This document shows, one piece after another, positions 11,140 through 37,437 of a stretch of DNA of 64,000 bases. The notes under the pieces were generated by a model. It had not been told where the DNA came from. It searched no databases and saw only the letters and a program-made list of their open reading frames with translations. The stretch's first letter is position 1. Each line of letters starts with the position of its first letter. The position numbers were made by a program, and so were the translations under genes. Origin of the DNA: an uncultured Clostridia bacterium (GTDB lineage: Bacteria; Bacillota; Clostridia; TANB77; CAG-508); NCBI GenBank assembly GCA_963558395.1, contig CAUWGE010000002.1, forward strand, positions 899 through 64,898, written 5' to 3'.

Positions 11140-12720
11140 ATGTTAATTGCAAATGGAGTGTCTGTAAGATTTGGAAAAAGAGCTCTTTATGAAGACGTAA
11201 ATATAAAATTTAATAAAGGATGCTGCTATGGAATTATAGGTGCAAATGGAACAGGAAAATCTACTTTTTTAAAGGTTTTATCTGGAGAACTAGAGCCAAG
11301 TAAAGGAGATGTTACAAAGGATAGAACAGAGAGAATATCTGTATTAAACCAAAACCACTATGCATTTGAAGAATATACTGTAATAGATACAGTAATAATG
11401 GGAAATAAAGAGTTATATAAAATTAAAACGGAAAAAGACGAAATATATGCTAAACCAGATTTTAATGAAGAAGATGGAATGAAAGCTGCAAAATTAGAAG
11501 AAAGATTTGCGGAATTAGACGGATGGAATGCAGAATCAGATGCGGAGCAACTTTTAAACGATTTAGGAATTTCTCCAGAAAAGCATTATAAACAAATGAG
11601 TGAAATAGAGGCTAAGGAAAAGGTAAAAATATTATTAGCACAAGCTTTATTTGGAAATCCAGACATATTATTACTAGATGAACCTACGAATGACTTGGAT
11701 TTAAAAACAATTTCATGGTTAGAAGAATTTTTGATTAATTTTGAAAATACTGTAATTGTAGTATCACATGATAGATACTTTTTAAATAAAGTATGTACAC
11801 ACATTTGTGATGTGGATTATGGGGAAATAAAGGTCTATCCAGGTAACTATGACTTCTGGTATGAATCAAGTCAATTAATCCAAAAACAAATGAGAGAACA
11901 AAATAAGAAGAAAGAAGAGAAGATAAAGGAGCTTCAAGATTTCATTGCAAGATTTAGTGCAAACGCATCAAAATCTAAGCAAGCAACTTCAAGAAAAAAA
12001 TCACTTGAAAAAATTCAATTAGATGAAATAAAACCATCAAATAGAAAATATCCATATGTAGATTTTAAACCAGATAGGGAACCTGGAAATGAAATACTAG
12101 AAGTAAAGAATTTGTCTAAAACTATAAATGGAGAAAAACTTTTAGATAATATATCTTTTAAAGTAAAAGATAAAGATAAAATAGCAGTATTAGCTGATAA
12201 TGAAAATGCTATAACAGTGCTATTTCAAATACTTGCAGGAGAGCTAGAACCTGACGAGGGAGAAATAAAATGGGGAACCACTATAACGGAAAGCTACTTC
12301 CCAAAAGATAATGGATATTTATTTGATTCAAATGACTCAATAACAGACTGGCTTAGACAGTATTCAAAAGATCCAGATGAAACATATGTAAGAAGCTTTT
12401 TAGGAAGAATGCTATTTTCAGGAGAAGAAGCACTAAAGGCAGTAAATGTTTTGTCAGGAGGAGAAAAAGTTAGATGTGTTCTTTCTAAAGTAATGCTTTC
12501 AGGGGCAAACTTTTTAATATTTGACGAACCAACAAACCATTTAGATATGGAAGCAATAACATCTTTAAATGAAGGGATGAAGAAATTTACAGGTAATTTA
12601 ATATTTTCATCACATGACCATCAACTAATGCAAACAGTTGCAAATAGAATAATTGATATAAAATCAAATGGAATTGTAGACAAGGAACAAAGCTATAATG
12701 AATATTTAGGAATAGAATAA
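11140..12720 (+). CDS. ABC-F family ATPase (tandem ABC domains, no TM domain)
   Basis: Two Walker A motifs (GANGTGKST and a degenerate second one) and two signature motifs (LSGGEKVR). Charged inter-domain linker. 526 aa. Confidence 0.85.
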   Translation: MLIANGVSVRFGKRALYEDVNIKFNKGCCYGIIGANGTGKSTFLKVLSGELEPSKGDVTKDRTERISVLNQNHYAFEEYTVIDTVIMGNKELYKIKTEKDEIYAKPDFNEEDGMKAAKLEERFAELDGWNAESDAEQLLNDLGISPEKHYKQMSEIEAKEKVKILLAQALFGNPDILLLDEPTNDLDLKTISWLEEFLINFENTVIVVSHDRYFLNKVCTHICDVDYGEIKVYPGNYDFWYESSQLIQKQMREQNKKKEEKIKELQDFIARFSANASKSKQATSRKKSLEKIQLDEIKPSNRKYPYVDFKPDREPGNEILEVKNLSKTINGEKLLDNISFKVKDKDKIAVLADNENAITVLFQILAGELEPDEGEIKWGTTITESYFPKDNGYLFDSNDSITDWLRQYSKDPDETYVRSFLGRMLFSGEEALKAVNVLSGGEKVRCVLSKVMLSGANFLIFDEPTNHLDMEAITSLNEGMKKFTGNLIFSSHDHQLMQTVANRIIDIKSNGIVDKEQSYNEYLGIE

Positions 12721-12790
12721 TAATATAAAAATAGGTAAGATTATATAAAACAAAATCTTACCTATTTGTTATTTTTATAGTTAATTATTA

Positions 12791-13855
12791 TTATTTATAT
12801 TTATCTTTTATTTCTTGAATTTTATCGTATTCATTATCAATAATATCTAAAAACATTGCTCCAAGTTCAGGGTCGAACTGTGTACCTAAGTTTTTTTGAA
12901 TTTCATCATGTACTACGTTTAATGGTAAACTATCTCTATAAATTCTTCTTGAAGACATAGCATCAAAAGAATCAGCAATAGCGGCAATTCTTGCAATATA
13001 TGGAATATTATTACCAGATAACCCCTCTGGATATCCACTGCCATCAAATCTTTCATGATGATGCTTAACAATAGGAATAATATCCTTAAACATATCTGTT
13101 TTTTCCAATATATCCACACCTATTTGAGTATGTTTTTTAATTGCTTCATATTCTTCATCAGTTAGCTTACCATTTTTCATAAGAATTGTATCTGGGATAC
13201 CAACTTTACCTACATCATGGAATAGACCACCAATTCTTAATATTTCAAGCTCTTCTTCACTTAAATTCAGTTTTTTACCTAAAAGAACAGAATAAGCAGC
13301 GACTCTGTCAGAATGACCTCTTGTATAAGAATCTTTTGCTTCGACAGTTGCTCTTATCATTTGGATAACCTCAAAATGAGCTTTTTCCAAATCTTGATTA
13401 GCTTTTTCTAAATCATCATTTATTTCTGTAATAGTTTTTCTTTGCTCTAATGCTTTGATACCAGATTCGATTAAGAGTAAAAGCTGGTCAAAATTATCAC
13501 TTTTTTCACAATAACCTTGAATATCTAGCTGCTTTATGGTATCAAGTGGTGGTGCCAAATCTTTATGTCCAGTTAATAGAAGAATATATAAGTCTTTATC
13601 AAATTTTCTAATTTCCTCTACAACCTGATCACCATGAAGAGGAGACATAATAAAGTCAAGTAAAAGTAAATCATACTTGTTAGCTTTCATTTCAGAAATA
13701 GCATCAATAGGATTTGTAAAAGTTTTTAATGCATATCCATGTCTATTTAAAACGACCGTCAATGAGTCTAATATGCCTGGATCGTCATCTACGGCGATTA
13801 TTTTAAAAGGAGAGGTAGCAACCTCTTGCATATATTTTCTCATAAAAACCTCCAT
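12791..13855 (-). CDS. response regulator with REC and HD-GYP phosphodiesterase domains
   Basis: REC domain (IIAVDDDPGIL...LLLLDFIMSP). HD-GYP motifs FHDVGKVGIP and HHHERFDGSGYPEGL. Confidence 0.85.
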   Translation of the reverse strand: MEVFMRKYMQEVATSPFKIIAVDDDPGILDSLTVVLNRHGYALKTFTNPIDAISEMKANKYDLLLLDFIMSPLHGDQVVEEIRKFDKDLYILLLTGHKDLAPPLDTIKQLDIQGYCEKSDNFDQLLLLIESGIKALEQRKTITEINDDLEKANQDLEKAHFEVIQMIRATVEAKDSYTRGHSDRVAAYSVLLGKKLNLSEEELEILRIGGLFHDVGKVGIPDTILMKNGKLTDEEYEAIKKHTQIGVDILEKTDMFKDIIPIVKHHHERFDGSGYPEGLSGNNIPYIARIAAIADSFDAMSSRRIYRDSLPLNVVHDEIQKNLGTQFDPELGAMFLDIIDNEYDKIQEIKDKYK

Positions 13856-13879: not shown

Positions 13880-15691
13880 TTAACTCTTTGGCAATAAAAT
13901 ATTAAACCTTGTGCCCTTACCAAGTTCAGAAGAGAAAGTAATATCTCCACCAAAATGGCCCTTAATAGTAGAATACGACATAAACAAACCAAGTCCTGTA
14001 CCATTTTGACCTTTTGTTGTTATCATTTGTGAAAATAGTTTTGATTGAACTTCTTTGCTAATGCCACAACCATGATCTATTATTGAAAATATAATTTTGT
14101 TATCTTTATAATCAACAATTAAATCAATTGAACCATCAGGCCTGCCATTATAGGCCTGTATTGCATTAGAAATCAAGTTATTTATAACTTGTACTAAACT
14201 ATTTATGTTGCCAGTAATTGTTGTATCTGGATTAATCTTAAAATCAATATTTAATGAAACCAAAGCATTTTTTAATTCATGTTTCATTAGTATATTAACT
14301 CTATTTAGTAATTCTTTTATTGTAAAAGTAATCGAAGTATCATTATTCATATTAACAGCTTGCCCCTTAACAGCAGTAATAATATCTGACATATATGAAT
14401 CATAAGTTCTAATTTTATTAACCCATGAACTCATATCTTTAGCAATATCATGATGGTCTTCAATTGTTACTTCAGGGTCATTAATGGAATTATTATATTC
14501 ATTAATTAAATCTTCTAATCCATCAACTGCTCCAGAGATGGACATGATAGGTGTTTTTAAGTTGTGTGCGATTCCTCCAACCATTTGACCTAAGGAAGCT
14601 AAACGTTCCCTTTCCATCAAAGCATTTTGGCTTCTTTCTAGATTTTGCATGTCCAATATGTGCTGAGTAATATCTTTAAATAATATAAGAATTCCAATAC
14701 ACTGGCCATCTTCATATATACCACTAATTTCTACATTGAAGTGCCTTTCAGAGTTAACTAAAGACGCTTCTAAATGGTAAATAGTTTTACTTCTTTTTGA
14801 AGTAACTAGACCTTCTTTTAAAGAACCGGTTTGAGATACTATTTTATCAGAAAAAGAAAGGTCAAATATATTTTTTCCAATTAAATCAGATTTATTCAAG
14901 TTAAATACTTGCTCAAATGGTTTATTACAATCTGAAATAATACAATCTTGATTAAGTACTAAATATAAATCCGACATTTGGTCAACAATTCTTTTTAATG
15001 CAATAGGAGTAACACTTAAAAAATTATATCTAAGTATAGCTACACCAAAGAAAAAGATTGTAATAATAAATGAAATAGGTGTTATATAAATATTTGCATC
15101 AAAGATAGTCATACAGCATATATTTACTACTACTGGAAAAGCTGAACCTATAAGTATTAAAAGAGATTGCTTAGAAAGCATAGATGATTCTTTTATTGAG
15201 GTTCTAAGTAAAATTATTATATCTACTGCAAATAATGCATAAGTATAAAGAGAATGCACAGGAAAATAATTTCCAAAAACAACATTTACAGTATTTACAG
15301 AATAATATTTATAAAATAAGTGATGAAAATCATTTGTCCACAAAACGAACATTGTTATAGTTGGAACAATAAATAATGATAAATACCACTTTTTAAATGT
15401 AATTTCCTTCTTGGAAAAAATATATGCAACAAAGAAAAGGGCAACAGGTGTAAATGCAATTGGCAAATATATAAAATAATCAACATATACTGCAAGGTCA
15501 GGAGACACATAATTAATAATAAGTATCTGAACAATAAGTCCAATACACCATAAAGTCATAAGAAGCATTGTACATTCAAATGCTCTAACCAATTGATTTC
15601 GTTTACTAGCTCTCTTTCTTATAAAATAGAATATTGTTAATTCAGCAATAACTGTTATTATTAATACAATAAAATATCCACCAAATTGCAT
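13880..15691 (-). CDS. sensor histidine kinase (multi-TM sensor, PAS, HisKA, HATPase)
   Basis: About six N-terminal TM helices. A PAS-like region, then the H-box GIAHNLKTP. Probable N/G boxes (NLISNAIQAY, GTGLGL). Starts 10 bp after the NRPS stop. Confidence 0.85.
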   Translation of the reverse strand: MQFGGYFIVLIITVIAELTIFYFIRKRASKRNQLVRAFECTMLLMTLWCIGLIVQILIINYVSPDLAVYVDYFIYLPIAFTPVALFFVAYIFSKKEITFKKWYLSLFIVPTITMFVLWTNDFHHLFYKYYSVNTVNVVFGNYFPVHSLYTYALFAVDIIILLRTSIKESSMLSKQSLLILIGSAFPVVVNICCMTIFDANIYITPISFIITIFFFGVAILRYNFLSVTPIALKRIVDQMSDLYLVLNQDCIISDCNKPFEQVFNLNKSDLIGKNIFDLSFSDKIVSQTGSLKEGLVTSKRSKTIYHLEASLVNSERHFNVEISGIYEDGQCIGILILFKDITQHILDMQNLERSQNALMERERLASLGQMVGGIAHNLKTPIMSISGAVDGLEDLINEYNNSINDPEVTIEDHHDIAKDMSSWVNKIRTYDSYMSDIITAVKGQAVNMNNDTSITFTIKELLNRVNILMKHELKNALVSLNIDFKINPDTTITGNINSLVQVINNLISNAIQAYNGRPDGSIDLIVDYKDNKIIFSIIDHGCGISKEVQSKLFSQMITTKGQNGTGLGLFMSYSTIKGHFGGDITFSSELGKGTRFNILLPKS

Positions 15692-15701: not shown

Positions 15702-18700
15702 TCATATGTTTTTTAGTATTTTTTCAATATATTCTTTTGTAATTTCAGGCCAATAGAAATCGGCTTTATCTAAAAATTTCAAAGTAAATGTATTTGTAAT
15801 TTTTAAGTTGGTTTTATATAATAGTTGTTTATCTTTATTCAAATCATTTAAAAGTACACTTACTTTATCAGAATTTGAACTATTAAACAAAACATTATTT
15901 AAATGTCTATTAAATATAAAATCATCTACTACACTTATATCATATCCTAAATTGTTTAAATATTCAATAAATTTCTGTATAAATAAATGTTTCGAATTAT
16001 ATAAATGTAATACAGACATTGGAGAAGTGTAGTATTTCATACAAACAACTATTGACTCAGCAATTTTATCAACAGGACTAAACTCAACATATTTATCTAG
16101 TAAAGAAAGAGGAATTTCTTTTAGATAAATGAATGCTTTTAGCCTATTTAAGAACGCATTATCATTACTGTTTTCTTGAAATTTTCCGTCGCTATATCTA
16201 TTTGTAATATTTCCAATTCTAAGGATGACACCTTTTAATTTTTTAGAAGAGATTTCATCTAAAATAAATTTTTCTGCTTCAAACTTACTTCTAACATAAA
16301 CATTATCTAGAGGTTGCTTTATAAATAGGTTAGTTTCTCCAAAAGAAATAATCTTATTTAACTTAAAAGTACTAGGTACACCAGTTAAAGTATTTCCAGA
16401 AACACTGATTGTTGATGTATGGTATAGTTCCTTATTAAATTCTTCACAAAATTTTACTAGATTTTTAGCACCAGTAACATTAATCTTTTCAAAATCTTTA
16501 TAATAGCCGTAATGTTTAACAGAAGCGGCACAGTTAATAACAGAAGATACTTCTTTTCCAAGAAAATTGTATATTTCGTTAGAAACCTTAAATTTATCAT
16601 TTGTTATATCTCCAGATATAACGAAAAGTCTGGTTCCAAATAAGTTACTTAAATCACTACCAAAATAATATTGGAATTTTCTCTTTAACTTATTTTCAGG
16701 AGAAGTACTAGGGTCTTCTCTTATTAAACAATAGATTTTGATATCATCTATTTTTAATAACTCAGCAAGAACATGAATTCCTAAAAATCCAGTAGCACCA
16801 ACTAACAAAACATTTTTGATGATTTTTTGTTTTAACTTTAATGCTCCAAAAGCAGAATTTTTCTTAAGCAGTTTATCTATTTTCTTAAAATCCTTAGGTG
16901 TATATGTTGGTAAGTTTTCGGTAGTAGAGTTATTTTCAACAAAATTAGCCAAGTCATGAATAGTGTTATTTTTAAATATATCACCATAATTCACAGTAAT
17001 ATTGTTTTTCATCAGCTCAATTTGCATTTTTAAAGCAGATAATGAATCCCCACCAATATCGAAGAAATTATCTTCAGTACTAATTTCTTCAAGAGAAAGA
17101 ATATCTCTCCAAATATTTAATATTTTACTTTCTAGTTCTGATTTAGGACGAACTATTGCAGCTGTTTTAAATACAGGATCAGGAAGAGCTTTTCTATCAA
17201 TTTTTCCATTTGGAGTGTATTTAAAGCTTTCGAGCTGAAGCATATAGTTAGGAACCATATAATTAGGCAATTTTTTTGCTAAAGCTTTTTTTAGTGTAGA
17301 GTATGGAACTCTTCCACTTGCTACAAAATATCCACATAAAAGCTCTCTATTATTAATGGTCTTAACAGTTACAACAGCATCACTAATACCTTCATATGAG
17401 CATATAGCTCTTTCTATTTCACCAAGTTCAATTCTAAGACCGCGAACTTTTACTTGAAAGTCGGTTCTACCTAAACAAATTAATTCACCATTAGGTAATA
17501 GCTTGGCTAAGTCTCCAGAATTGTAAATGATTTCATTATTATACTTAATAAATTTTTCAGAAGTAAGCTCAGGTCTATTTTTATATCCTAAAGTTACACC
17601 ATCTCCGCCAATATACAAAGTCCCTGGAACATAATATGGTACAAAGTTCATATCATTATCTAAAACGAGAACATGAGTGTTTGCAAGAGGAGTACCTATT
17701 GTAATGTCATTTGTATTTGTAAGATCTTTTAAAGTAGAGCCAACAGTAGTTTCGGTTGGACCATACATATTATAAACTTCTGTATCAGATAATTCTTTAA
17801 TTCTTTTAAGTAGCTCTAAAGGAAATGGTTCTCCTATTAATGAAACAATTTTAAGTTCTTTTAAATATGGAAGTTCGTCATTAATAAGTAGTTTAAATTT
17901 AGATGGTGTAGTTTGTATTACATCTACATTATTTTTTAAACAAAGTTCATTTAAAAGAATAGGATTGTTTTGCTCATCATTTGTAGCCATAACAACTTTC
18001 ATACCAGTGCAAAGAGGAAGCAAACTTTCAAAAACAAATATATCAAAACACATAGTTGTTATTGAAACAATAGTTTTTCCTTCTAATGGCATTCTTTCTA
18101 AGCAGCCATATATAAAGTTTACAACATTATATTGCTTTATCATGACTCCTTTAGGCTTACCTGTTGAACCAGATGTATAAATAAGGTAAGCTAAATCTTT
18201 TGGACCTTGCTCTGTGTTAAATTCAGAGTAAGGAAGGTAATTGGCTTTGTCATCAACTAAAAGATAATTAGTAGGTATTAAATCCTTTAAGTTATTTTCG
18301 GTTAGAATTAAATCTACTCCACTATTTTCAATAATATAACTAACTCTTTCTTCTGGATAGGTTGGGTCAATTGGTAAATATCCAGCACCAGATTTCAAAA
18401 TTGCAAGCATAGAGATGATTAAGTTATTTGAACGATTCATCATAATGCCAATGACATCTTTTTTTCCAAAAGTACGAAGTTTATTAGCAAGCCTATTTAT
18501 TTTTACTTCTAATTCTTTATATGTATATTGCTCGTTTTTACATACTAAAGCAATTTTATTTGGAGTAAGTTTAACTTGGTTTTCAAACATATCTATAACT
18601 CTAAAATCTCTAGGATAATCTAAAGTTGGATAAATATAAGGTATCTTAGATAACATTTGAATTTTAGATATTTGAATATCTGGATTTACTAAACAGCTAT

Positions 18701-21700
18701 TTATGATATTAAAATAGCAGTCAAGTAATGTTTTCATAAACTTTTCACTATAAAGATTAGTAGAATATTCTAATCTAAAGTTATAACCTGAACTTATAGG
18801 AGTGATCTCTAAAGAAAAATCAAATTTAGAAGTTTTATTTTCAGGAATAACATATTCTACCTCTTCACCATCAAATGAGAATGAAGGTCTACCACCACTT
18901 TCATAAGTAAAGAGTACATCAAATATAGGGCTTCTACTTGGATCTCTTATTACATTCAAAGTTTTTACTAAATCATCAAAAGGATAAGTTTGATGATTAA
19001 ATGCATTTAAACAATTCTTCTTTACTGCTTCTAAAAATACACTAAATCTACTAGCAGAATGTATGTTTTGCTTTAAAGGTAGAGTATTTACAAACATTCC
19101 AATAACATTAGAAATCTCAGGAGAATTTCTTCCTATAACAGGGCTACCAACTGTAATATCATTTTGCATAGTATATTTATACAAAAGAATATAAAAACAT
19201 GAAAGGAAGAACATATATGGTGTAATATTATATTTTTTGCATAATGTAGATATATCCGAAAGTTTATCTAAAGAAGCATAAACATTAGAACCCTCTTCAG
19301 ATTTTATATTTGTTCTTTCAAACTCAGTAGGCATATTTAAAAGAGGGATACCAGCAGAAAATTGCTCTTTCCAATATAATTTATCATCTTCACTTATAGT
19401 TTCAGAAACAGCATAATCTATATAATCAAGTTCAGATTTTAAAATTTGATTACCATTATATAAATCACACAATTCTTTAGCAAAAATGCTAATAGAAGTT
19501 CCATCACAAATTATATGATGAATATCTAGTTTTAATAAATATGAATCGTCAAAATGGTCTAATTCAACATGAACAAGAGGGGCTTTAGAAAGGTCAAAAG
19601 GCCTAATAAAGTTTTCGTTATCATATTCATTAACTGTTAGATGAAAATCAATATTTTTAACTAGTTTTTGAACTACATCATTATTTTCTAATACAAAATA
19701 TGTTTTAAATGCATCATGCATATTTAAAATTTGTGCTAAGCATTTCTCAAGCTTTGAAATGTCAGGCTTTGATCTAAATTTAACGCCAAAAGGAGTATTA
19801 TATGCCAAACTTTCAGTCTCCATATTTACTGTATAAAATATTCTTCTTTGAGCAGAAGAAACTGGATATGAATCAGCTTCTTTATGCTTTTTTATAACTA
19901 TCTTTTGGTAAGACGATGAATTTTTTTCTTCTAAAAGAGAAGAAAGCTCTTTAATAGAAGGCATGTTATAAATATCTTGAATATTTAACTTTATATTTAA
20001 AGTACTATATATTTCAGAAACTAGTCTTATAACTGAAAGAGAGTCCATACCCCAATCAAAAATATTAGCCGTAGCACTAATTTTATCTGTATCCAGAATG
20101 GGTTTTAAAATATTCTCTAATTTTTTTTCAAAGTCAGTTTCGCAAGGAACAAAATGTTCATGTATAATTTGTATTTCTGGTAAATTCTTTGTATCAATTT
20201 TTCCGTTTAATGTAATAGGAAAAATTGACAGTTGCATAATATGACTAGGAATCATATATTTGGGCAAAGACCTTGCAATAAAATCTTTAACATAATTTTC
20301 ATCCAATTTAGAGTCTGCTTTAATATATGAACAAATACAGTCAATATTGTTTACTTTCTTTATAACAGATATAGCATTTGTAACTTCAGGAATTTGCATG
20401 ATTTTAGATGTTATTTCATCAAGCTCGATACGTAAACCATGGAGCTTAATTTGATTATCTTGCCTTCCTAAGTAAATAAGTTCACCATCACTAGATAATA
20501 TACCTAAGTCTCCGGTATGATAAGTTCCATTAAAATCAAATTTATTAACATATCCTTTTCCTACGCCATCTCCTTTTATTACTATTTCTCCGCAAACGCC
20601 AGAAGGAAGGATATTGCCGAATTTGTTCATAATATAGATTTCAGTATTTAAAAATGGTTTCCCTATTGTAATATTATCATCTTTAACTTTTTTATTAGAA
20701 GCACAAGCAGTGCATTCAGAAGGACCATAACCATTATATATTTTAGCAGAAGTATTTTCTCTTAGCCTCTTATATAAAGAAGGTTTAAAAACTTCTCCAC
20801 CTAACTGAATTACTTTGACATCTTTTAAACAATCAGGTTCTTCTAATAAAAGACTAATTTTAGAAGGTGTACTTAAAATAAAATCAACATGGTTTTCCTT
20901 TATTAATTTGCTAGTAAAAGCAGGAATTTTTTGTTCTTCTTCATCTGCTAAAACAACAGTTTTTCCATCTAAAATAGAAACAAAATTTTCTACTATAAAC
21001 ATATCAAAGGCAACTGTACTAGTACTTAAAAAGTTTTTGCAATCATTAGTTTTTAATAGTTGTTTATAACTATTTAACATATTAATGATACCAATACGTT
21101 TTAATTCAACTCCTTTAGGTTTACCAGTTGAACCAGATGTATATATAATACAAAAGCGATCATCATTTGATGAATCAGCAGGTGAAAAACAAGTAGAAAA
21201 CTGTTTTCGATGTTCGATATTAATAGATGGGTAGTTTATATATAAATTTGTAAGAACAAGTTTGCTAGATGCATTTTCAAGCATATATTGAACCCTATCT
21301 TGTGGAAGGCTAGGATCTATTAACATATAAGAAGCCCCAACTTTTAAAACTCCCCAAATAGCAATTAATAAATCGAATGAACGATTAAACATTATACCAA
21401 CAGAGTCCTGTTTTTCTATTCCATAATTTAAAAGTAAATTTGCAACTTGATTAGACTTTTCATCTAATTCTTTGAAAGTAAGTTTTGCACCTTTAAAAAT
21501 TATAGCAGGTGAATTTTCGTTTAATTTTACAACTTTAGAAAAAAGGCTAATAAGAGAAGTATTTTTGTCATATTTAAATGAAGTATTATTAAAGTCAGAA
21601 ATGATTTTATTATCCTCTGGAGAAGTTACTTCTATGTTAGAAATTTGAGGATTTTGCAATGCAAATTTAGCCATTTCACAAATTCTAGAATGCAAAAGAT

Positions 21701-22904
21701 CTATATCTTTTTCCGAAAATTTAGAAATTTGATAATCATAAAAAATATTTGCTTCTCCTGTACCATCCATATCATAAAAATGTGCATCAATAGAATCACC
21801 AATATTAGAAATTGGCTCCCAAGTAGATTCATAATCAATTTCAGCAGTGTTTTTATTATCTCTAGCATTTTGGTAAGATAGCACAAAATCATATAAGTTG
21901 TCACTTATATCACATGTTTGTTTTATATGTTCTAGTAGTTCTAAATATGGGTATTTTTGGTGTCTAAAGATTGAGGTCTGAATATTCGAGACCTTATTTA
22001 AAAATTCATTAAATTTAAGATTAAAATCAATATCTATTTTAAATGGAACTGTGCTTACAAACATTCCAGAAGTATTTTTTTCAGTAAAATTGCTTCTATT
22101 TAAAACTGGTGTACCTAAAATAGCAGTTTTTGTAGAGTTAATTTTGGCTAAATAAATTGAAAAAATTGCCATAAAAAATGTATAAATAGAGCATTTATTT
22201 TCTTTGCAATATTCTAAAATAGCGTCATAAAGACTTGCTTCAAAAAAACAAATTTTTCGTTTAGAAGCGGAATTACTATTATTTTTATTTTTAGATATAT
22301 AAGTCAGTTCTGGTAAGTTTTCAAAATTACTCTCCCAGAATTCCTTATCTTTTATGAATCTGTTACTTTTTTTATACTCATTGCATGAGGCAATATAGTT
22401 TGTATATAATGGCTTTTTCTCAAAGTTAGTATCATTATGCAAAAGTTTTGTATAAATATCTATGAAAGTTGAGATAAATAGACTCATGCTCCAAGCGTCG
22501 GTAATTAAATGATGAAATATTGGAATAATTCCACCTCTTCCATCAGAAAGAGTAAATAATTTGAATTTATATAAATCCTTATCAATGGTTTCGAAGGGTT
22601 CTGAAATAAGCCTTGTGGTTAAAGCTTTTAAATCATCAATATTATTAAGTGACACGACATCTAGTGTAAAGGGCTTATACTCGGTCAAAAATTGAACTGG
22701 TTTAGCATCTTTTATATCAAAGTGCATACAAGATATTTCAGTAGTTTGCACATAAAGATTTGAGGCCTTTTGCAAAAGAGGAATATTTACTTTTTCATTC
22801 AGTAATAAATATCCACCAATATTATTTATATTGGTACCACTATAAAAGACTTCAGAATTCCAAATGTTTTTTTGCTGGTCTGTTAACTCAAATAAAGAAT
22901 TCAT
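15702..22904 (-). CDS. two-module non-ribosomal peptide synthetase, C-A-T-C-A-T-R, with a terminal thioester reductase
   Basis: C domains HHLITDAWS and HHIICDGTS. A-domain cores IIYTSGSTGKPKGV, YGPSECT, GRQDNQIKLHGLRIELDEI and LIYTSGSTGKPKGV, YGPTETT, GRTDFQVKVRGLRIELGEIE. T domains FDWGMDSLSVI and FFDIGGDSLSAL. C-terminal Rossmann fold VLLVGATGFLGIHV. 2400 aa. Confidence 0.95.
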   Translation of the reverse strand: MNSLFELTDQQKNIWNSEVFYSGTNINNIGGYLLLNEKVNIPLLQKASNLYVQTTEISCMHFDIKDAKPVQFLTEYKPFTLDVVSLNNIDDLKALTTRLISEPFETIDKDLYKFKLFTLSDGRGGIIPIFHHLITDAWSMSLFISTFIDIYTKLLHNDTNFEKKPLYTNYIASCNEYKKSNRFIKDKEFWESNFENLPELTYISKNKNNSNSASKRKICFFEASLYDAILEYCKENKCSIYTFFMAIFSIYLAKINSTKTAILGTPVLNRSNFTEKNTSGMFVSTVPFKIDIDFNLKFNEFLNKVSNIQTSIFRHQKYPYLELLEHIKQTCDISDNLYDFVLSYQNARDNKNTAEIDYESTWEPISNIGDSIDAHFYDMDGTGEANIFYDYQISKFSEKDIDLLHSRICEMAKFALQNPQISNIEVTSPEDNKIISDFNNTSFKYDKNTSLISLFSKVVKLNENSPAIIFKGAKLTFKELDEKSNQVANLLLNYGIEKQDSVGIMFNRSFDLLIAIWGVLKVGASYMLIDPSLPQDRVQYMLENASSKLVLTNLYINYPSINIEHRKQFSTCFSPADSSNDDRFCIIYTSGSTGKPKGVELKRIGIINMLNSYKQLLKTNDCKNFLSTSTVAFDMFIVENFVSILDGKTVVLADEEEQKIPAFTSKLIKENHVDFILSTPSKISLLLEEPDCLKDVKVIQLGGEVFKPSLYKRLRENTSAKIYNGYGPSECTACASNKKVKDDNITIGKPFLNTEIYIMNKFGNILPSGVCGEIVIKGDGVGKGYVNKFDFNGTYHTGDLGILSSDGELIYLGRQDNQIKLHGLRIELDEITSKIMQIPEVTNAISVIKKVNNIDCICSYIKADSKLDENYVKDFIARSLPKYMIPSHIMQLSIFPITLNGKIDTKNLPEIQIIHEHFVPCETDFEKKLENILKPILDTDKISATANIFDWGMDSLSVIRLVSEIYSTLNIKLNIQDIYNMPSIKELSSLLEEKNSSSYQKIVIKKHKEADSYPVSSAQRRIFYTVNMETESLAYNTPFGVKFRSKPDISKLEKCLAQILNMHDAFKTYFVLENNDVVQKLVKNIDFHLTVNEYDNENFIRPFDLSKAPLVHVELDHFDDSYLLKLDIHHIICDGTSISIFAKELCDLYNGNQILKSELDYIDYAVSETISEDDKLYWKEQFSAGIPLLNMPTEFERTNIKSEEGSNVYASLDKLSDISTLCKKYNITPYMFFLSCFYILLYKYTMQNDITVGSPVIGRNSPEISNVIGMFVNTLPLKQNIHSASRFSVFLEAVKKNCLNAFNHQTYPFDDLVKTLNVIRDPSRSPIFDVLFTYESGGRPSFSFDGEEVEYVIPENKTSKFDFSLEITPISSGYNFRLEYSTNLYSEKFMKTLLDCYFNIINSCLVNPDIQISKIQMLSKIPYIYPTLDYPRDFRVIDMFENQVKLTPNKIALVCKNEQYTYKELEVKINRLANKLRTFGKKDVIGIMMNRSNNLIISMLAILKSGAGYLPIDPTYPEERVSYIIENSGVDLILTENNLKDLIPTNYLLVDDKANYLPYSEFNTEQGPKDLAYLIYTSGSTGKPKGVMIKQYNVVNFIYGCLERMPLEGKTIVSITTMCFDIFVFESLLPLCTGMKVVMATNDEQNNPILLNELCLKNNVDVIQTTPSKFKLLINDELPYLKELKIVSLIGEPFPLELLKRIKELSDTEVYNMYGPTETTVGSTLKDLTNTNDITIGTPLANTHVLVLDNDMNFVPYYVPGTLYIGGDGVTLGYKNRPELTSEKFIKYNNEIIYNSGDLAKLLPNGELICLGRTDFQVKVRGLRIELGEIERAICSYEGISDAVVTVKTINNRELLCGYFVASGRVPYSTLKKALAKKLPNYMVPNYMLQLESFKYTPNGKIDRKALPDPVFKTAAIVRPKSELESKILNIWRDILSLEEISTEDNFFDIGGDSLSALKMQIELMKNNITVNYGDIFKNNTIHDLANFVENNSTTENLPTYTPKDFKKIDKLLKKNSAFGALKLKQKIIKNVLLVGATGFLGIHVLAELLKIDDIKIYCLIREDPSTSPENKLKRKFQYYFGSDLSNLFGTRLFVISGDITNDKFKVSNEIYNFLGKEVSSVINCAASVKHYGYYKDFEKINVTGAKNLVKFCEEFNKELYHTSTISVSGNTLTGVPSTFKLNKIISFGETNLFIKQPLDNVYVRSKFEAEKFILDEISSKKLKGVILRIGNITNRYSDGKFQENSNDNAFLNRLKAFIYLKEIPLSLLDKYVEFSPVDKIAESIVVCMKYYTSPMSVLHLYNSKHLFIQKFIEYLNNLGYDISVVDDFIFNRHLNNVLFNSSNSDKVSVLLNDLNKDKQLLYKTNLKITNTFTLKFLDKADFYWPEITKEYIEKILKNI

Positions 22905-23019
22905 TTTTTATACCTCTTGTATTATTAAATTTTAAACATATTATATATATTATTAATGCAAAATGCAATAATAAATGAACATTAAAGTAATAAATTTACG
23001 AGTAAAAGTCAAATATAGA

Positions 23020-23048
23020 TTGACTTAATTTACATAATGATATATAAT
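23020..23048 (+). promoter_or_regulatory. sigma-A-type promoter (TTGACT-17-TATAAT) for the cysteine-rich ORF
   Basis: TTGACT at 23020-23025, a 17-nt spacer, TATAAT at 23043-23048. Confidence 0.45.
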
Positions 23049-23114
23049 TAAAGAGTAACTTGTAGACAAAAAAAGAGAGAAATCTCTGAACTATTATTTA
23101 AGAAAGGGACAATA

Positions 23115-23687
23115 ATGGACACTACAAACAAAAACTTAAATTCAAAAAGCCGCTATGAGTTAAAAATTGAAGGAGAAAATATTACGCTCCTTCAGATTCT
23201 TCCCGAAAAGAGGGAATATCCTTTAAAACGGGTAAGTAAAGAGCTCGTAAGAGCTCAGAGAAAAGAGAAAATTCCTTCCTTCATTTTGAAACTGGGAGAG
23301 GAGTTATATTACTCAGAAATAGCGAAAGACAGTGCTTTTTCGTCTACTGACCTCTTACAGAATCCGCATAAATGTGGAGAATGTGACAGAATGAACTGCT
23401 GTAGTGACGAATGCGGTGGATGCAAGAAGGTTCGAGACGGATGTTTTGGAATTGAAAACTATCCATTTATAATAAGAGGATATGAAACAATTTTTATTGA
23501 GTTTTCATGTTTTGTAGTTAGTGAATGTACTAACTACGAAAGACCAAAAAAGAAAAAGAAAACGCATTTCGACTGCAGATTTTTTTCACAAATTAACGAA
23601 AACACATGTGCATGCAGTAAAACAGGATTTAAGAAAAGAATTAATCCCAGTGAAAACTGCAAAAATTGTCCTGTATTAAATAAGTGA
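23115..23687 (+). CDS. cysteine-rich hypothetical protein with atypical, GC-richer codon usage
   Basis: 190 aa with 17 Cys, including CGECDRMNCCSDECGGCKKVRDGC. Frequent CTC/CCG/CGG/GAC codons that are rare elsewhere in the window. Has its own promoter and terminator. Confidence 0.5.
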   Translation: MDTTNKNLNSKSRYELKIEGENITLLQILPEKREYPLKRVSKELVRAQRKEKIPSFILKLGEELYYSEIAKDSAFSSTDLLQNPHKCGECDRMNCCSDECGGCKKVRDGCFGIENYPFIIRGYETIFIEFSCFVVSECTNYERPKKKKKTHFDCRFFSQINENTCACSKTGFKKRINPSENCKNCPVLNK

Positions 23688-23689
23688 GA

Positions 23690-23726
23690 AAAGGATCCTT
23701 GCCGTTTGGCAAGGGTCCTTTTCAGA
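23690..23726 (+). terminator. rho-independent terminator
   Basis: AAGGATCCTTGCC-gtttg-GGCAAGGGTCCTTTTC: a perfect GC-rich hairpin followed by a T-run. Confidence 0.7.
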
Positions 23727-23845
23727 ATTAATATAAAAAATGCAAAATAAAAAGGCATCTTAGATATAAAATGAAGATAAAATATTGAAAAATATAAAAA
23801 ATTGGTATATTATACAATTAATAAAAAATAATGGAGGAAATATGT

Positions 23846-25588
23846 ATGAGTGAAGAATCAAACTTAATACCAAAAATGAATAATTATAGAGAAATATTAG
23901 AATATGTACAAAAAAATTATGCAGACAATATTGCATATAAATATAAAGAAAATATAATAAAAGATCCACCTAAATATATAGAAAAAAAATATAGTCAAGT
24001 AGTAAAAGATGTAAAAGCACTTGCAACTGCTCTTTTAGACCTGGGCTTTAAGGGAAAGAGGATCGCACTAATTGGTGAAAATAGATATGAGTGGTGCATT
24101 AGTTATTTAGCTGTTACTTGTGGAGGGATGGTAATTGCACCTATGGACAAGTTACTTCCAGATAAAGAAATAACATCTTTGGTAAAAAGAAGTGAAGTTG
24201 ATGCAGTTATTTATGAGAAAAAACATGAAGAACTATTCAAAAAATTAAAAAATGATGGAGAAATAAAGCTAAATACTATAATTTGTATAGATGCAGATGA
24301 AGATGATGAAGATCCAGCAGTAACAAAACTTGAAGATTTAATAAAAAAAGGAAGAAAATTAATAAAAGAAAAAAGTAAACTATATGATGAAGTAGAAATA
24401 GACAATGATGCAATGTCTATAATGCTATTTACATCTGGAACAACAGCAAATGCTAAAATTGTAATGTTATCACAAAATAATATTTGTTCTAATATATATG
24501 CATATCAAAATCACTTTAAAATAAAAGAAGATGACACTTTGTTATCATTTTTACCAATACATCATACCTTTGAAAGCAGTATAACAATATTATATGGATT
24601 TTATAGTGGAGCTACAATTGCATTTTGTGATGGTTTAAGATATATTCAAACAAATTTAAAGGAATATGAAGTATCAATATTTGTTGCTGTACCTTTAGTT
24701 TTAGAAACAATGTATAAAAAAATAAAAAAGGGAATACAAGACCAAGGAAAAACAAAATTAATAGAGACTGTAACTAAAATATCAAATACATTATTAAAAG
24801 CTCATATTGATTTAAGAAAGGTACTTTTCAAAAAAATTACTGATAACTTTGGTGGAAAACTTAGAATGGTACTTTATGGAGCAGCATCTTTAGATAAAGA
24901 TACAATTATAGGATTAAATAATTTTGGAATAAATTCAATTCAAGGCTATGGATTAACTGAAACATCACCTGTACTTACAGCAGAATCAGAAGAAAAGCAT
25001 TGTCCTGGTTCAATAGGATATCCTTTGGACAATGTTGAAATAAAAATTCATAATCCAGATAATGGGGGCGTTGGAGAAATATATGCTAAAGGACCAAACA
25101 TTATGCTAGGATATTATGGAGACGAGAAGAAAACAAAAGAGACTTTTGATGACGGATGGTTTAAAACAGGAGATTATGGATATATAAATAGGGATGGATT
25201 CGTATTTGTAACAGGAAGAAAAAATGATATTATAGTACTTAAAAATGGAAAGAATGTGTATCCACAAGAAATAGAAACATTGATTGCAAAATTACCATAT
25301 GTAGCAGAGTGCATGGTATTTTCAAGAGAAGCAAATTCAACAGATACAATGCTTGTTGCAAAAATTGTATACAATAAAGAAGAGATGGAAAAAGATTATC
25401 CAGATAAAAAAGGAGATTATGAGAAAATAATTTGGAAAGACATAAAAGAAATAAATAAGACATTACCAACTTTTAAGCATATTAAAAAAATCATTGTAAC
25501 AGATAAGCCAATGATAAAGACAACTACACAAAAGGTTAAAAGATATGAAGAAATAAGAAAAACAGAAAGAGAAATGGATAAAGCTTAA
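23846..25588 (+). CDS. long-chain fatty-acid--CoA ligase (AMP-binding/ANL superfamily)
   Basis: AMP-binding motifs LFTSGTTANAKIV, YGLTETS and GWFKTGDYGYI. GGAGG precedes the ATG at 23846. Confidence 0.85.
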   Translation: MSEESNLIPKMNNYREILEYVQKNYADNIAYKYKENIIKDPPKYIEKKYSQVVKDVKALATALLDLGFKGKRIALIGENRYEWCISYLAVTCGGMVIAPMDKLLPDKEITSLVKRSEVDAVIYEKKHEELFKKLKNDGEIKLNTIICIDADEDDEDPAVTKLEDLIKKGRKLIKEKSKLYDEVEIDNDAMSIMLFTSGTTANAKIVMLSQNNICSNIYAYQNHFKIKEDDTLLSFLPIHHTFESSITILYGFYSGATIAFCDGLRYIQTNLKEYEVSIFVAVPLVLETMYKKIKKGIQDQGKTKLIETVTKISNTLLKAHIDLRKVLFKKITDNFGGKLRMVLYGAASLDKDTIIGLNNFGINSIQGYGLTETSPVLTAESEEKHCPGSIGYPLDNVEIKIHNPDNGGVGEIYAKGPNIMLGYYGDEKKTKETFDDGWFKTGDYGYINRDGFVFVTGRKNDIIVLKNGKNVYPQEIETLIAKLPYVAECMVFSREANSTDTMLVAKIVYNKEEMEKDYPDKKGDYEKIIWKDIKEINKTLPTFKHIKKIIVTDKPMIKTTTQKVKRYEEIRKTEREMDKA

Positions 25589-25735
25589 TAAAAAATTAAG
25601 GGAAAGTTAAAGTAAAAATAAAAAGTATTAGTTATAATATGCTTAGAAAAAACGCTAAAAGGATAATCTTTTAAAATAAAGAAACACATTTGCTAATTGT
25701 GATTGCTTTTAGCTAAAGAGGAAAGGAAAATTAAT

Positions 25736-26785
25736 ATGGAAAAAAAGAAAATAGGAGTAGTATTTGGAGGATGTAGTCCAGAACATAATGTGTCTTTAGA
25801 AAGTGCATATAGTGTGATAACAAATATAAATAGAGAAAAATATGATATAGTATTAATAGGAATAACAGAGGATGGAAATTGGTATAAATTTAATGGTAAT
25901 GCAGAAGAAATAAAAAATAATACATGGGAAAATGGAGACTGTGAGAAAGCGATTTTATCATGTAATAGAGAAGACAAGGGAATAATCTGTTTTAAAAATG
26001 GTAATTGTGAAAAAATAAAATTAGATGCAATTTTTCCAGTATTACACGGAGAAAATGGAGAAGATGGGTCTATTCAAGGATTAATCAAATTAGCCGGAAT
26101 ACCTTTAATTGGATGTGGAATTTTAGCCTCAAGTGTAGGAATGGATAAATATGTATCACATAAATTAGTAGAAAGCTATGGAATAAAAGTTGCAAAAAAT
26201 ATAACAATAGACAAAAGTGCTACTGAAAATGAAATTAAGGAAAAAATAAAAGAGTTAGGATATCCTGTATTTGTAAAACCAATGAGGGCAGGTTCATCAT
26301 TTGGAATTACTAAAGTAGAAAGAGAAGAACAAATAGCAAAAGCCTTAGAAGAAGCATTCAAATATGATACAGAAGTTATTATTGAAGAAAACATAGACGG
26401 AAATGAAATTGGGTGTGCTGTGCTTGGAAATGAAAAACTAACAGTTGGAGAAGTGGATGAAATAGAATTGAGTGATGGATTTTTTGATTTTACAGAAAAG
26501 TATACACTGAAAACATCTAAAATTTACGTTCCAGCAAGAATAAGTGAGGAAAAGGCAATAGAAGCAAAAGAAATTGCAAAGAAAATATATAAAATATTAA
26601 AATGTAAAGACTTTGCAAGAGTAGATATGTTTTTAAGCAAAAATGGAGAAATATATTTTAATGAAATAAACTCAATACCAGGATTTACATCACACAGTAG
26701 ATATCCTAGTATGATGAAGGAAGTAGGACTAGACTTTAGTAGCCTTATAGAAAAACTTATAGAAATGAATATACAAAAAAATTAA
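25736..26785 (+). CDS. ddl: D-alanine--D-alanine ligase (DdlA/Van-ligase family)
   Basis: KIGVVFGGCSPEHNVSLESA, LHGENGEDGSIQGL, YPVFVKPMRAGSSFG, GFFDFTEKY, NEINSIPGFTSHSRYP. Collinear with E. coli DdlA and the VanA/B/G ligases. The specificity loop is Ddl-like. Confidence 0.85.
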   Translation: MEKKKIGVVFGGCSPEHNVSLESAYSVITNINREKYDIVLIGITEDGNWYKFNGNAEEIKNNTWENGDCEKAILSCNREDKGIICFKNGNCEKIKLDAIFPVLHGENGEDGSIQGLIKLAGIPLIGCGILASSVGMDKYVSHKLVESYGIKVAKNITIDKSATENEIKEKIKELGYPVFVKPMRAGSSFGITKVEREEQIAKALEEAFKYDTEVIIEENIDGNEIGCAVLGNEKLTVGEVDEIELSDGFFDFTEKYTLKTSKIYVPARISEEKAIEAKEIAKKIYKILKCKDFARVDMFLSKNGEIYFNEINSIPGFTSHSRYPSMMKEVGLDFSSLIEKLIEMNIQKN

Positions 26786-26877
26786 ATTAAAAGTATAATA
26801 ATAGGGAGGGAAATGAATACCTCCCTAAGATTTATTATTTATAACATATAATCTAAAGTATGGAAAGGAAGTTTAGA

Positions 26878-27984
26878 ATGAAAGATAGAGTGTGGGTAGA
26901 AATCAGTAAAGAAAACTTAGAAAACAATATAAATGAAATAAGAAAAATAATGCCTACAAAAGCGAAAATGATGGCTGTTGTAAAAGCAAACGCATATGGC
27001 CATGGAATAATAAATATATCAAAAATGTTAAACAAACTTAATGTAAAGAATTTTGCAGTAGCAACACTTGACGAAGCAATTACATTAAAGAAAAATAAAA
27101 TTAGAGGAAATATACTAATTTTAGGATATACAGACTTTAGTAGAATTAATGAAGTAATTAGATATAATCTAATTCAAACAATTGTAGATGAGGAATATGC
27201 AGAAAAAATAGACAAAATGGAACTAAAAGACAAACTAAGATGCCATGTAAAGATAAATACAGGAATGAATAGAATCGGGGAAGGATTCTGCAACATAGAT
27301 GAACTAGAAAAAATATATAAAATGAAAAATTTAAGTCCAGAAGGTATATTCTCACATTTATGTGTTTCAGATAGTATGAAAGAAGATGACATAAAATTTA
27401 CAAAAGCTCAAATAGACAAATTCTTTTATGCAACGAGGCACCTAGAAGCAAGAGAAATAAATGTAGGAAAAAAACACATACAAGCAAGTTATGGAATAAT
27501 AAACTACCAAGACTTAAAATGTGATTATGTAAGGCCAGGGATAATAATGTATGGTGTACATAGTGGAGAAATAATGAATCCAATAAACTTAAAACCAGTA
27601 TTAAAATTAAAAGCAAGAATTGCAAGTGTAAAAGAAATTGGTGAAGAAGAATATGTGAGTTATGGAAGAACATATAAAGCAACTGAAAAAAGAAAAATAG
27701 CAACCATTACTATTGGATACGCAGATGGATATCCAAGAAGTTTATCAAGTAAAGGAGCAAAAGTTTTAATAAACGGAAAATATGCAACTATAATAGGCAG
27801 AATATGTATGGACCAATGTATAGCCGATGTTACAGACATAGAGAATGTAAAACAAGGAGATGAAGTAACACTAATAGGAGAAGAAAAAGAAATTTCAGCA
27901 GAAAATGTAGCAAATTTAGCTGGGACGATTGCAAATGAATTACTTTGTAGATTAGGTCCTAGAATAAAAATTGTAGAGGTATAG
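26878..27984 (+). CDS. alr: alanine racemase
   Basis: PLP-lysine motif VVKANAYGHG and the C-terminal SYGIINY...DYVRPGIIMYG motif. A GGAAAGGAAG RBS precedes the ATG at 26878. Confidence 0.85.
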   Translation: MKDRVWVEISKENLENNINEIRKIMPTKAKMMAVVKANAYGHGIINISKMLNKLNVKNFAVATLDEAITLKKNKIRGNILILGYTDFSRINEVIRYNLIQTIVDEEYAEKIDKMELKDKLRCHVKINTGMNRIGEGFCNIDELEKIYKMKNLSPEGIFSHLCVSDSMKEDDIKFTKAQIDKFFYATRHLEAREINVGKKHIQASYGIINYQDLKCDYVRPGIIMYGVHSGEIMNPINLKPVLKLKARIASVKEIGEEEYVSYGRTYKATEKRKIATITIGYADGYPRSLSSKGAKVLINGKYATIIGRICMDQCIADVTDIENVKQGDEVTLIGEEKEISAENVANLAGTIANELLCRLGPRIKIVEV

Positions 27985-29247: not shown

Positions 29248-30783
29248 ATGTTATCAATAATAAAAAGTATGGCACTACTTGGACTAAATGGATATCTTGT
29301 AGATATCCAAATAGATGTGTCACAAGGCCTTCCGTACTTTGGCATTGTTGGGCTTCCAGACACAAGTGTAAAGGAGGCAAAAGAAAGAGTAAAAGCAGCT
29401 ATAAAAAATTCAGGTTATGAAATTTTAAATAGAAAAATTATAGTAAATTTAGCACCAGCAGATAGAAAGAAGGAAGGTTCATTATTCGATTTGCCAATTG
29501 CAGTAGGAATACTTGCCTGTAATAAAATTGTAGAATATAGAATGTTAAAAGATACAATTATTATAGGAGAACTTTCTTTAGATGGAAGAATAAACAAAAT
29601 AAATGGAGCATTGCCAATATGTATAGAGGCTAGAAAACTAAATGCCAAAAGAATAATTTTACCAGTAGAAAATGCTAAAGAAGCATCAGTTGTTCAGGGA
29701 ATAAAAGTGATAGGTGTAAAGACACTAAAAGAGGCAATAAAATACTTGAGAAATGAAATAATAATAGAAGAAAATAAAAACAATATAGAAGAACTCCTTA
29801 AAGTGAAAAATAATTATGCACTTGACTTTTCAGAAGTAAAAGGACAAGAAAATATAAAAAGAGCAATAGAAATTGCAGCGGCAGGAGGGCATAATTTGCT
29901 TATGATAGGTAGTGCACGGAAGTGGAAAAACAATGCTTGCTAAAAGAATACCTACAATACTTCCTAAAATGACAGTAGAAGAAGCTTTAGAAACAACAAA
30001 AATTCACAGTATAGCAGGAAACATTCAGAAAAATGAATCAATAATGATAGAAAGACCATTTAGGGCGCCACACCATACAATATCTACAACAGCATTAATA
30101 GGAGGAGGAAATATTCCTAAACCGGGAGAGATAAGCTTAGCACATAATGGAGTGTTATTTTTAGATGAACTTCCAGAGTTTAATAGAAATTCTCTAGAGG
30201 TATTAAGAGGACCACTAGAGGATAAAAATGTTACAATAAGTAGACTATATGCAAGTCTAACATATCCATGTAATTTTATGTTAGTTGCATCCATGAATCC
30301 ATGTCCATGCGGATTTTACGGCTGTGAAGATAAGAAGTGCACATGTTCTAAAACAGATATAAATAATTATATGGGAAGAATAAGTGGACCATTGCTTGAT
30401 AGAATAGATATTCAAATTGAAGTAGGACATCTAAAATATGATGAGCTAAACAGTATAAGAAATATAGAAAATTCAGAAACTATACGGAATAAGGGTTAAC
30501 AAAGCAAGAACACTACAACAAGAAAGGTACAAAGATGAAAATCTTTATTCTAATTCTCAGTTAACACCAAAGCTTATAGAAAAATATTGTAAGATAGAAG
30601 GGAAAGCTAAGGAGATTTTAGAAATAGCATTTTCTAAATTAGGTCTTTCTGCTAGAGCATATAATAAAATCCTAAAAGTAGCAAGAACAATAGCTGACTT
30701 AGAACAAGAGAATAATATTAAAGAAAAGCATATAGCAGAGGCAATTCAATATAGAAGTTTAGATAAAAAATACTGGAATCATT
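29248..30783 (+). pseudogene. comM: YifB/ComM family Mg-chelatase-like ATPase split by two frameshifts
   Basis: ChlI_N-like N-terminus. The Walker A is disrupted (…[12 protein letters not shown] in one frame and [10 protein letters not shown] in another, near 29925). A second shift near 30485 leaves the conserved C-terminus (…[13 protein letters not shown]…AEAIQYRSLD) as an unlisted third piece. Confidence 0.7.
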
Positions 30784-32958: not shown

Positions 32959-32986
32959 TATTTTATTATAGTCTTATGTACATTAT

Positions 32987-37432: not shown

Positions 37433-37437
37433 TCCTG

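Follow-up and report, generated by a model that had tools for sequence, protein, structure and literature searches.

The stretch of DNA analysed here, referred to throughout as the window, is 64 kb long and comes from an uncultured Clostridia bacterium (contig CAUWGE010000002.1). It is AT-rich (~28% GC) and carries a gene for a large nonribosomal peptide synthetase (NRPS), followed on the same strand by genes for a sensor histidine kinase and for a response regulator with an HD-GYP domain, and the three are predicted to form a single operon with the NRPS gene first. A gene resembling those of acyl-coenzyme A (acyl-CoA) ligases lies on the other side of the NRPS gene in divergent orientation (Table 1). 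The original prediction for this locus concerned the NRPS and the ligase; the constant operon of NRPS, kinase and HD-GYP regulator is a new observation that it had missed, and it changes what should be regarded as the biosynthetic unit.

A reductase-terminated NRPS at the head of a three-gene operon

The low GC content of the window together with a length of 2400 codons indicates that the NRPS open reading frame (ORF) is not a chance product. Pfam searches were run on the full protein and on five sub-pieces of it, and both domains and motifs agree with the order predicted from the letters, namely condensation (C), adenylation (A) and carrier (T) domains arranged as C-A-T-C-A-T-R over 2400 aa, with a terminal reductase (R). 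Profile annotation recovered both the terminal reductase and the N-terminal C domain, and it likewise agreed with the position and domains predicted for the divergent AMP-binding ligase gene. The condensation motifs are HHLITD at aa 131 (C1) and HHIICD at aa 1129 (C2), TSGSTGKPK occurs twice (aa 589 and aa 1577), the carrier serines stand in GMDSL (Ser955) and GGDSL (Ser1954), and the reductase has GATGFLG at 2036 and YVRSK at 2203 (Y2203xxxK2207). The NRPS is intact, with every catalytic and core motif kept. It has the features expected of a reductase-terminated dimodular NRPS: two A-T modules, a C domain that joins them, and a reductase of the short-chain dehydrogenase/reductase type with GxxGxxG and the Tyr/Lys pair.

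Table 1. Features of the NRPS operon and of its upstream neighbours; residue numbers refer to the NRPS protein
Feature	Position	Strand	Residues (aa)	Support and remarks
NRPS gene, C1-A1-T1-C2-A2-T2-R	15702..22904	(-)	2400	single unbroken ORF
C1, starter-position condensation	21612..22889	(-)	6-431	Pfam Condensation, E 8e-66; motif HHLITDA
A1 adenylation	20190..21533	(-)	458-905	Pfam AMP-binding aa 458-785, 4e-69
T1 carrier, Ser955	19935..20120	(-)	929-990	Pfam PP-binding; GMDSL motif
C2 condensation	18645..19877	(-)	1010-1420	Pfam Condensation, E 1e-91; motif HHIICDG
A2 adenylation	17202..18587	(-)	1440-1901	Pfam AMP-binding aa 1440-1774 and AMP-binding_C aa 1829-1901
T2 carrier, Ser1954	16938..17126	(-)	1927-1989	Pfam PP-binding; GGDSL motif
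R, terminal NAD(P)H thioester reductase	15705..16805	(-)	2034-2400	Pfam NAD_binding_4 aa 2034-2285, E 4e-42
Sensor histidine kinase	13880..15691	(-)		Pfam HisKA_7TM, PAS, HisKA and HATPase_c
Response regulator, REC + HD-GYP	12791..13855	(-)		Pfam Response_reg and HD_5; motifs read directly
NRPS operon promoter, sigma-70-type	22940..22968	(-)		TTGCAT, 17 nt spacer, TATAAT
Operon-ending terminator hairpin	12722..12765	(-)		12-bp perfect stem, then T run
190-aa gene between NRPS and ligase	23115..23687			near-consensus promoter, ribosome-binding site and terminator
Acyl-CoA-ligase-like gene, divergent	23846..25588	(+)		Pfam AMP-binding (E 6e-68) and AMP-binding_C_3

The kinase gene starts 10 nt past the TGA stop of the NRPS gene, with a GAGGAGG ribosome-binding site that overlaps this stop, and the kinase start is predicted to be translationally coupled to it. 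The first ATG of the regulator gene lies 24 nt past the kinase stop codon; translation probably begins at the second ATG (13843), which would give a protein of 350 aa, since GGAGG precedes this codon and relatives of the regulator are 350 aa long. Motifs read directly in the regulator are LLLLDF, FHDVGK and HHERFDGSGYP. It thus has the acceptor Asp, the HD residues and the HHExxDGxGYP signature of the REC + HD-GYP (RpfG) type and is a predicted enzyme, and it scores 204 bits against the NCBIfam model for NosR-family cyclic di-GMP (c-di-GMP) phosphodiesterases, for which the cut-off is 400. The two promoter hexamers are invariant in 8 aligned loci. At the other end the AT-rich operon terminator was missed by an automatic scan, found by reading and confirmed by folding (-16.1 kcal/mol, z = -6.0). 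A scan of the window with Rfam found no riboswitch or RNA leader for the operon, and only tRNAs and a pemK motif elsewhere. Among window ORFs of at least 100 aa no gene was found for an acyl carrier protein or other carrier protein, a thioesterase, an exporter of the cluster or a further NRPS or polyketide synthase.

Conservation of the NRPS-kinase-regulator linkage

More than 1200 homologues of the NRPS were found at E <= 1e-50, and the cluster at 99% identity alone contains 41 member sequences, on contigs of up to 98 kb. No characterised relative was met among the homologues reached from the window NRPS or from a 38%-identical protein (P0113). For comparison of gene order, 36 related loci with 25-31% GC were used, of which 25 are from GTDB; all those with titles are metagenome-assembled genomes of uncultured Clostridia or Bacillota, and several of the titles point to gut samples (Hadza, Sheep_Jejunum, MGBC, Lapin).

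Wherever a locus reaches far enough to tell (33 of 33), the kinase gene is the next one downstream of the NRPS gene, 4-119 nt away. Among these loci are 31 distinct NRPS sequences, with identities from 74% down to 37%; a three-module variant (L034) is one of them, and in some loci (L028, L034) all other neighbours have changed. The regulator gene adjoins the kinase gene in 29 of the 31 loci where this could be assessed; in L032 it lies 5 kb further away, and no regulator gene occurs within 5 kb in L034. The regulator is without a DNA-binding output, so that the pair looks unlike an ordinary cluster-situated transcription switch. In the literature searched, no description was found of a kinase/HD-GYP pair with a peptide-aldehyde NRPS, nor of a link between such NRPSs and c-di-GMP or two-component signalling.

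Further neighbours are also shared over long distances. Genes for an ABC-F ATPase and for CorA (11140..12720 and 10115..11068 in the window) stay near the operon where the NRPS is only 40-46% identical (L026, L030), and the ABC-F ATPase is 83-95% identical across the clade. This persistence indicates that the locus has long been inherited vertically with the chromosome and is not a mobile island. A gene for an HtrA-like serine protease, with trypsin and PDZ domains, is found upstream of the NRPS gene and divergent from it in five loci of more distant relatives (L026, L027, L032, L033, L035), the order in L035 being HtrA, ligase, NRPS. Its place beside a predicted protease-inhibitor synthetase is curious and could be plain synteny.

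Predicted reductive release

The C-terminal ~430 residues of the NRPS, with the R domain, align end to end with two solved structures, the carrier protein-reductase didomain (PCP-R) of Mru_0351 (6VTJ, E 1e-50, aa 1972-2397) and AusA-R (4F6L, E 4e-33, 118 bits; also 4F6C); the catalytic-triad Tyr and Lys are conserved in relation to both. With the NAD_binding_4 match, these alignments bear out the NAD(P)-dependent thioester reductase that had been predicted from GATGFLG. Mru_0351 offers the closest solved structure to T2-R and belongs to Methanobrevibacter ruminantium, also an anaerobe of the gut (rumen). It is part of a four-module archaeal NRPS without a known product and is uninformative on release chemistry.

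AusA releases its product by two-electron reduction (PMC8210680). The Staphylococcus aureus enzyme (AusA/PznA) has the same A-T-C-A-T-R core and a homologous R domain, but it is without an N-terminal C domain and makes free-amine aldehydes that give pyrazinones, whereas the window NRPS has the extra C1; AusA is partnered by the phosphopantetheinyl transferase (PPTase) AusB, and the window NRPS by the kinase. The AusA model (NCBIfam NF047350, an equivalog) is the best NCBIfam match of the NRPS, with 1292 bits over aa 794-2395. The NRPS does not qualify as an AusA equivalog, as this score is below the cut-off of 2500 and C1 and A1 lie outside the match.

The R domain could instead carry out a four-electron reduction, in which case the product would be an N-acyl dipeptide alcohol. 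We consider this improbable. The two- and four-electron outcomes are not separable by sequence (PMC8024701), and MxaA-R, an alcohol-forming domain, is also a detectable relative (78 bits); however, among R domains of established function the nearest is AusA-R, which forms an aldehyde, and characterised gut relatives release aldehydes (PMC8518294, PMC8210680).

The starter-position condensation domain and predicted N-acylation

C1 begins at aa 6, and no upstream carrier or loading module was found in cis or among the window ORFs of at least 100 aa. Compared with the lipo-initiation C domain of the surfactin synthetase SrfA-A, in a sequence that was not drawn from a database, C1 scored 202 bits (30% identity, residues 3-427). 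Two control comparisons gave 72 bits (C1 with C2 of the same protein) and 96 bits (C2 with this SrfA-A sequence). Blocks common to C1 and that sequence are LTDxQKxIW, HHxIxD, RFxKDKxFW, GMFVSTVP and RHQKYPY. The two differ in that SrfA-A carries HHxxxDG and C1 carries HHxxxDA. The HHxxxD motif of C1, including both catalytic histidines, is conserved across the two-module homologues examined (n = 173), in which the next residue is always A or S; C2 has the canonical HHxxxDG in 169 of the same 173. A C domain in the first module usually means N-acylated products (PMC2812497), and a Clostridium NRPS cluster (BGC0001686) makes N-octanoyl-Met-Phe-H (PMC8518294). C1 is plausibly a lipo-initiation domain, and its sequence features together with the published work are best read as pointing to N-acylation.

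Were C1 not to acylate, the NRPS would form a free-amine dipeptide aldehyde that goes on to a dihydropyrazinone or pyrazinone, as do AusA and the majority of characterised clusters from the gut. What is commonly isolated from such NRPSs is pyrazinones (PMC12327764), AusA supplies the best NCBIfam model of the protein, and the C1 motif is non-canonical. On the other side, the match to the AusA model stays below its cut-off and leaves out both C1 and A1, and C1 itself is full length, with its two catalytic histidines conserved throughout the two-module homologues and a resemblance to a lipo-initiation domain (that of SrfA-A). We therefore hold a free-amine product to be very improbable.

Because an N-acyl cap removes the free amine, an acylated dipeptide aldehyde would not cyclise to a (dihydro)pyrazinone. 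The original prediction had proposed both an N-acyl starter and dipeptide aldehydes that cyclise to pyrazinones or dihydropyrazinones, and the two halves of this proposal conflict. Its more general statement, that anaerobic Firmicutes with this layout make protease-inhibiting dipeptide aldehydes, agrees with the literature, in which NRPSs of gut Clostridia make such inhibitors, including N-acylated ones (PMC8518294, PMC8210680). An N-acyl tail also stabilises the aldehyde (PMC8210680).

Specificity codes and module shuffling

The Stachelhaus codes of both A domains were extracted by alignment to GrsA and motif anchoring, followed by a check in a family alignment. The A1 code is DMVLQGGACK, which is nearly universal in the NRPS family, and the A2 code is DIFQSIMVGK. 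The latter agrees at 6 of 10 positions with the glycine-type code DILQLGMVWK that some relatives have at module 2, and A2 resembles a glycine-type pocket in which the floor has been opened (W331G). Neither code has a charged pocket residue, so that both substrates, amino acids 1 and 2, are probably neutral.

The A1-type code is not fixed to one module: besides module 1 it occurs in module 2 (L033), and L026 has it in both. The codes of the partner module vary and include DIFQSIMVG, DIFQSAMVG, DIFQSLGVA, DVWYLGGIC and the canonical glycine code DILQLGMVW. Module shuffling was seen in five loci (L026, L028, L030, L033, L034) and in proteins P0033-P0061; three-module variants have ~3500 aa, and P0063 (2687 aa) has an extra N-terminal C-like region. 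In all shuffled-module relatives that were looked at, the kinase is still downstream.

Proposed pathway and related systems

We think it probable, on balance, that the operon makes an NRPS-derived linear N-acyl dipeptide aldehyde, with synthesis tied to the kinase/HD-GYP module and the ligase as an optional contributor. C1 would take an acyl-CoA without a dedicated carrier protein and N-acylate amino acid 1, which A1 would have loaded on T1. C2 would then join the acylated residue to amino acid 2 on T2, and R, with NAD(P)H, would reduce the thioester and free the linear N-acyl dipeptide aldehyde. With its amine capped, the aldehyde would be expected to stay linear and form no pyrazinone. The neighbouring ligase could make the acyl-CoA, although it appears dispensable in most relatives.

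Several points weigh against this pathway. Among window ORFs of at least 100 aa there is no PPTase gene. The inference that the N-terminal C domain implies an N-acyl starter, made in the original prediction, draws support from the position of C1 and its kept HHxxxD. The score with the SrfA-A comparator, by contrast, is a lead rather than a database result, and C1 scores only ~32 bits with the solved starter domains RzmA and CDA-C1, against 94 bits with the TycC elongation domain. Further, C1 carries HHxxxDA where HHxxxDG is canonical, and neither sequence nor structure yet distinguishes two- from four-electron reduction (PMC8024701). Finally, neither adenylation code agrees with any code known to us at more than 6 of 10 positions, and DMVLQGGACK agrees at no more than 4 of 10.

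From its architecture and published descriptions, the NRPS would belong to the reductase-terminated dimodular NRPSs of gut Clostridia, as an uncharacterised member of the N-acyl subclass. Guo et al. 2017 (Cell 168:517) reportedly described this gut Clostridia family, with dipeptide aldehydes and pyrazinones as its products. Its N-acylated subclass (BGC0001686), compared here by description, shares the dimodular reductase-ended layout, the N-terminal C domain, the origin in gut anaerobes and the expected product. Members of that family come from cultured Lachnospiraceae and Clostridium isolates, whereas the 36 loci compared here are uncultured and of 25-31% GC.

A second relative by description is the ruminopeptin (rup) pathway, said to have been reported from Ruminococcus bromii by Schneider and Balskus 2018 (Tetrahedron 74:3215). 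The GC content of R. bromii is ~41%, and that of the loci here is much lower. The product class predicted for rup is the same as for the window NRPS. The reported Leu-Glu aldehyde of ruminopeptin would need a basic pocket residue, however, and neither window code has one. Ruminopeptin is a predicted N-acylated dipeptide aldehyde from a gut NRPS that was accessed without isolation (PMC8518294, PMC12327764).

The divergent ligase and the genes beside it

The longest ORF of the ligase gene begins at 23831; its true start is probably 23846, given a GGAGG 8 nt upstream and close homologues of 580 aa. The best NCBIfam match is the long-chain-fatty-acid--CoA ligase subfamily PRK06187, with 275 bits and a cut-off of 476, and no equivalog was reached. 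The nearest solved relatives in the PDB are CoA ligases.

A ligase orthologue is adjacent to the NRPS gene and divergent from it in 12 of 32 assessable loci. Eleven of these belong to the window clade, in which 12 loci could be assessed, and the other is L035 (NRPS 42% and ligase 60% identical). The ABC-F, CorA, Tex and HtrA-like genes share this deep synteny with the locus, and such neighbourhood-wide synteny makes adjacency alone weak evidence for a role of the ligase. The association appears to be old but facultative, and the ligase is a possible supplier of acyl-CoA. Its proposed supply of the acyl starter is biochemically plausible for an enzyme of CoA-ligase type, but presence in 12 of 32 loci does not support it as necessary.

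A stronger form of this idea, that the ligase is a dedicated supplier of the acyl starter and that ligase and NRPS make up the biosynthetic unit, seems to us unlikely. In its favour, the ligase is of CoA-ligase type and not adenylate-only, the two genes share a promoter region, and they are neighbours in two deeply separated clades (that of the window and that of L035). Yet 20 of 32 assessable loci have NRPS and kinase but no ligase; the ligase shows higher conservation than the NRPS (77-84% against 68-74%), as expected of a housekeeping enzyme; ABC-F, CorA, Tex and HtrA are equally syntenic; and in this species the two genes are separated by a 190-aa gene that has a promoter and a terminator to itself. 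The unit that emerges is NRPS, kinase and regulator, with the ligase optional.

This intervening gene is outside the conserved system. It is found only in this species, being absent from the spacer of every relative and identical in many samples of the same species, and its terminator is strong (-28.3 kcal/mol, z = -6.75). The encoded protein belongs to a family of ~400 representative clusters with an invariant Cys, invariant Gly, Asp, Lys and Arg positions and a nearly invariant His; searches of Pfam, NCBIfam and PDB sequences gave no match, and PHROGs essentially none.

Genes for a D-Ala-D-Ala ligase and an alanine racemase (25703..27984, plus strand) lie directly downstream of the acyl-CoA ligase gene. 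They are also present in a locus of the same species (L031), whereas a search of the 10 kb around the NRPS gene in the 25 GTDB loci found neither. A role of this Ddl and Alr pair in supplying D-alanine was ruled out, as relatives with the same A2 code are without these genes nearby.

A possible signalling role

Peptide aldehydes from gut NRPSs are potent inhibitors of host cathepsins. The linkage to kinase and HD-GYP regulator gives a testable hypothesis for their native role in the bacteria that produce them, namely self-signalling or control of lifestyle. In our working model, synthesis of the lipopeptide may be tied to a c-di-GMP signalling module. The kinase is the candidate sensor of the product in this model, and its embedding in the membrane would suit a lipophilic ligand.

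An analogue in gene content is the Rpf/DSF (diffusible signal factor) system of Xanthomonas, which comprises the acyl-CoA ligase RpfB, the signal synthase RpfF, the sensor kinase RpfC and the HD-GYP regulator RpfG. By analogy, the window has the same logic of gene set: a synthase for what may be a lipid-type signal, a membrane kinase, a REC-HD-GYP protein and an acyl-CoA ligase alongside. The parts differ, in that the Rpf/DSF synthase is a crotonase that is not homologous to the NRPS, and RpfC is a hybrid kinase whereas the kinase here is of the HisKA_7TM/PAS type.

Variation in the kinase was compared between 25 loci. Its seven-transmembrane (7-TM) region (kinase aa 1-230) is 36-75% identical to that of the window, against 65-82% for the kinase core. 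In an exploratory test on pairs of loci that are not phylogenetically independent, with control for identity in the regulator, the NRPS R domain and the kinase core, conservation of the 7-TM region was slightly lower where the A-domain codes differ (Spearman -0.22), and the PAS region showed no such effect (-0.06).

The furthest-reaching interpretation is that the aldehyde is a self-made lipophilic signal, read by the 7-TM kinase and setting c-di-GMP through the HD-GYP regulator, and not primarily an inhibitor of host proteases. We advance it tentatively, as a rather unlikely proposal: the idea of a sensor and its ligand draws on gene linkage plus a weak, phylogenetically confounded covariation that is no more than a hint. 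If it were true, there would be an NRPS-based quorum-sensing or lifestyle circuit, analogous to Rpf/DSF, across an order of uncultured gut Clostridia, and variation of the second amino acid would give the signal its specificity.

Kinase and regulator may, on the other hand, sense an external cue unrelated to the product and be linked to the NRPS only by an old shared operon. This is a real possibility, though one we lean against. Biosynthetic genes often have two-component systems beside them, synteny extends to the whole neighbourhood of the operon, and the HisKA_7TM domain is without a known ligand (PMC5847659). Mere retention of an old operon fits less well with an NRPS-kinase adjacency that outlasts all other neighbours (L028, L034, the latter the three-module variant), with the coupling of the kinase start to the NRPS stop, and with the slightly greater divergence of the 7-TM region where A-domain codes differ (the Spearman values and non-independent pairs given above).

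Other features of the window

Elsewhere in the window, a gene for a Mg-chelatase-like ATPase of the ComM/YifB type is split into two overlapping ORFs on the plus strand (29248..29943 and 29912..30499). The first part holds the N-terminal ChlI domain and the second residues 32-206 of Mg_chelatase, and the split reflects a sequencing error or else a frameshift that has left a pseudogene. What is probably an integrated mobilisable element occupies ~33100..43750, beside genes for tRNA-Arg and tRNA-Pro (32882..33062). Its cargo comprises RepA_N, a Mob_Pre relaxase, an ABC exporter, a Schlafen/AlbA_2 protein and a Fic protein, and it includes the pemK RNA motif (40881..40959) and a tyrosine integrase (41415..42809). 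Within the region of this element, GC content falls to 22-26% at 36-40 kb.

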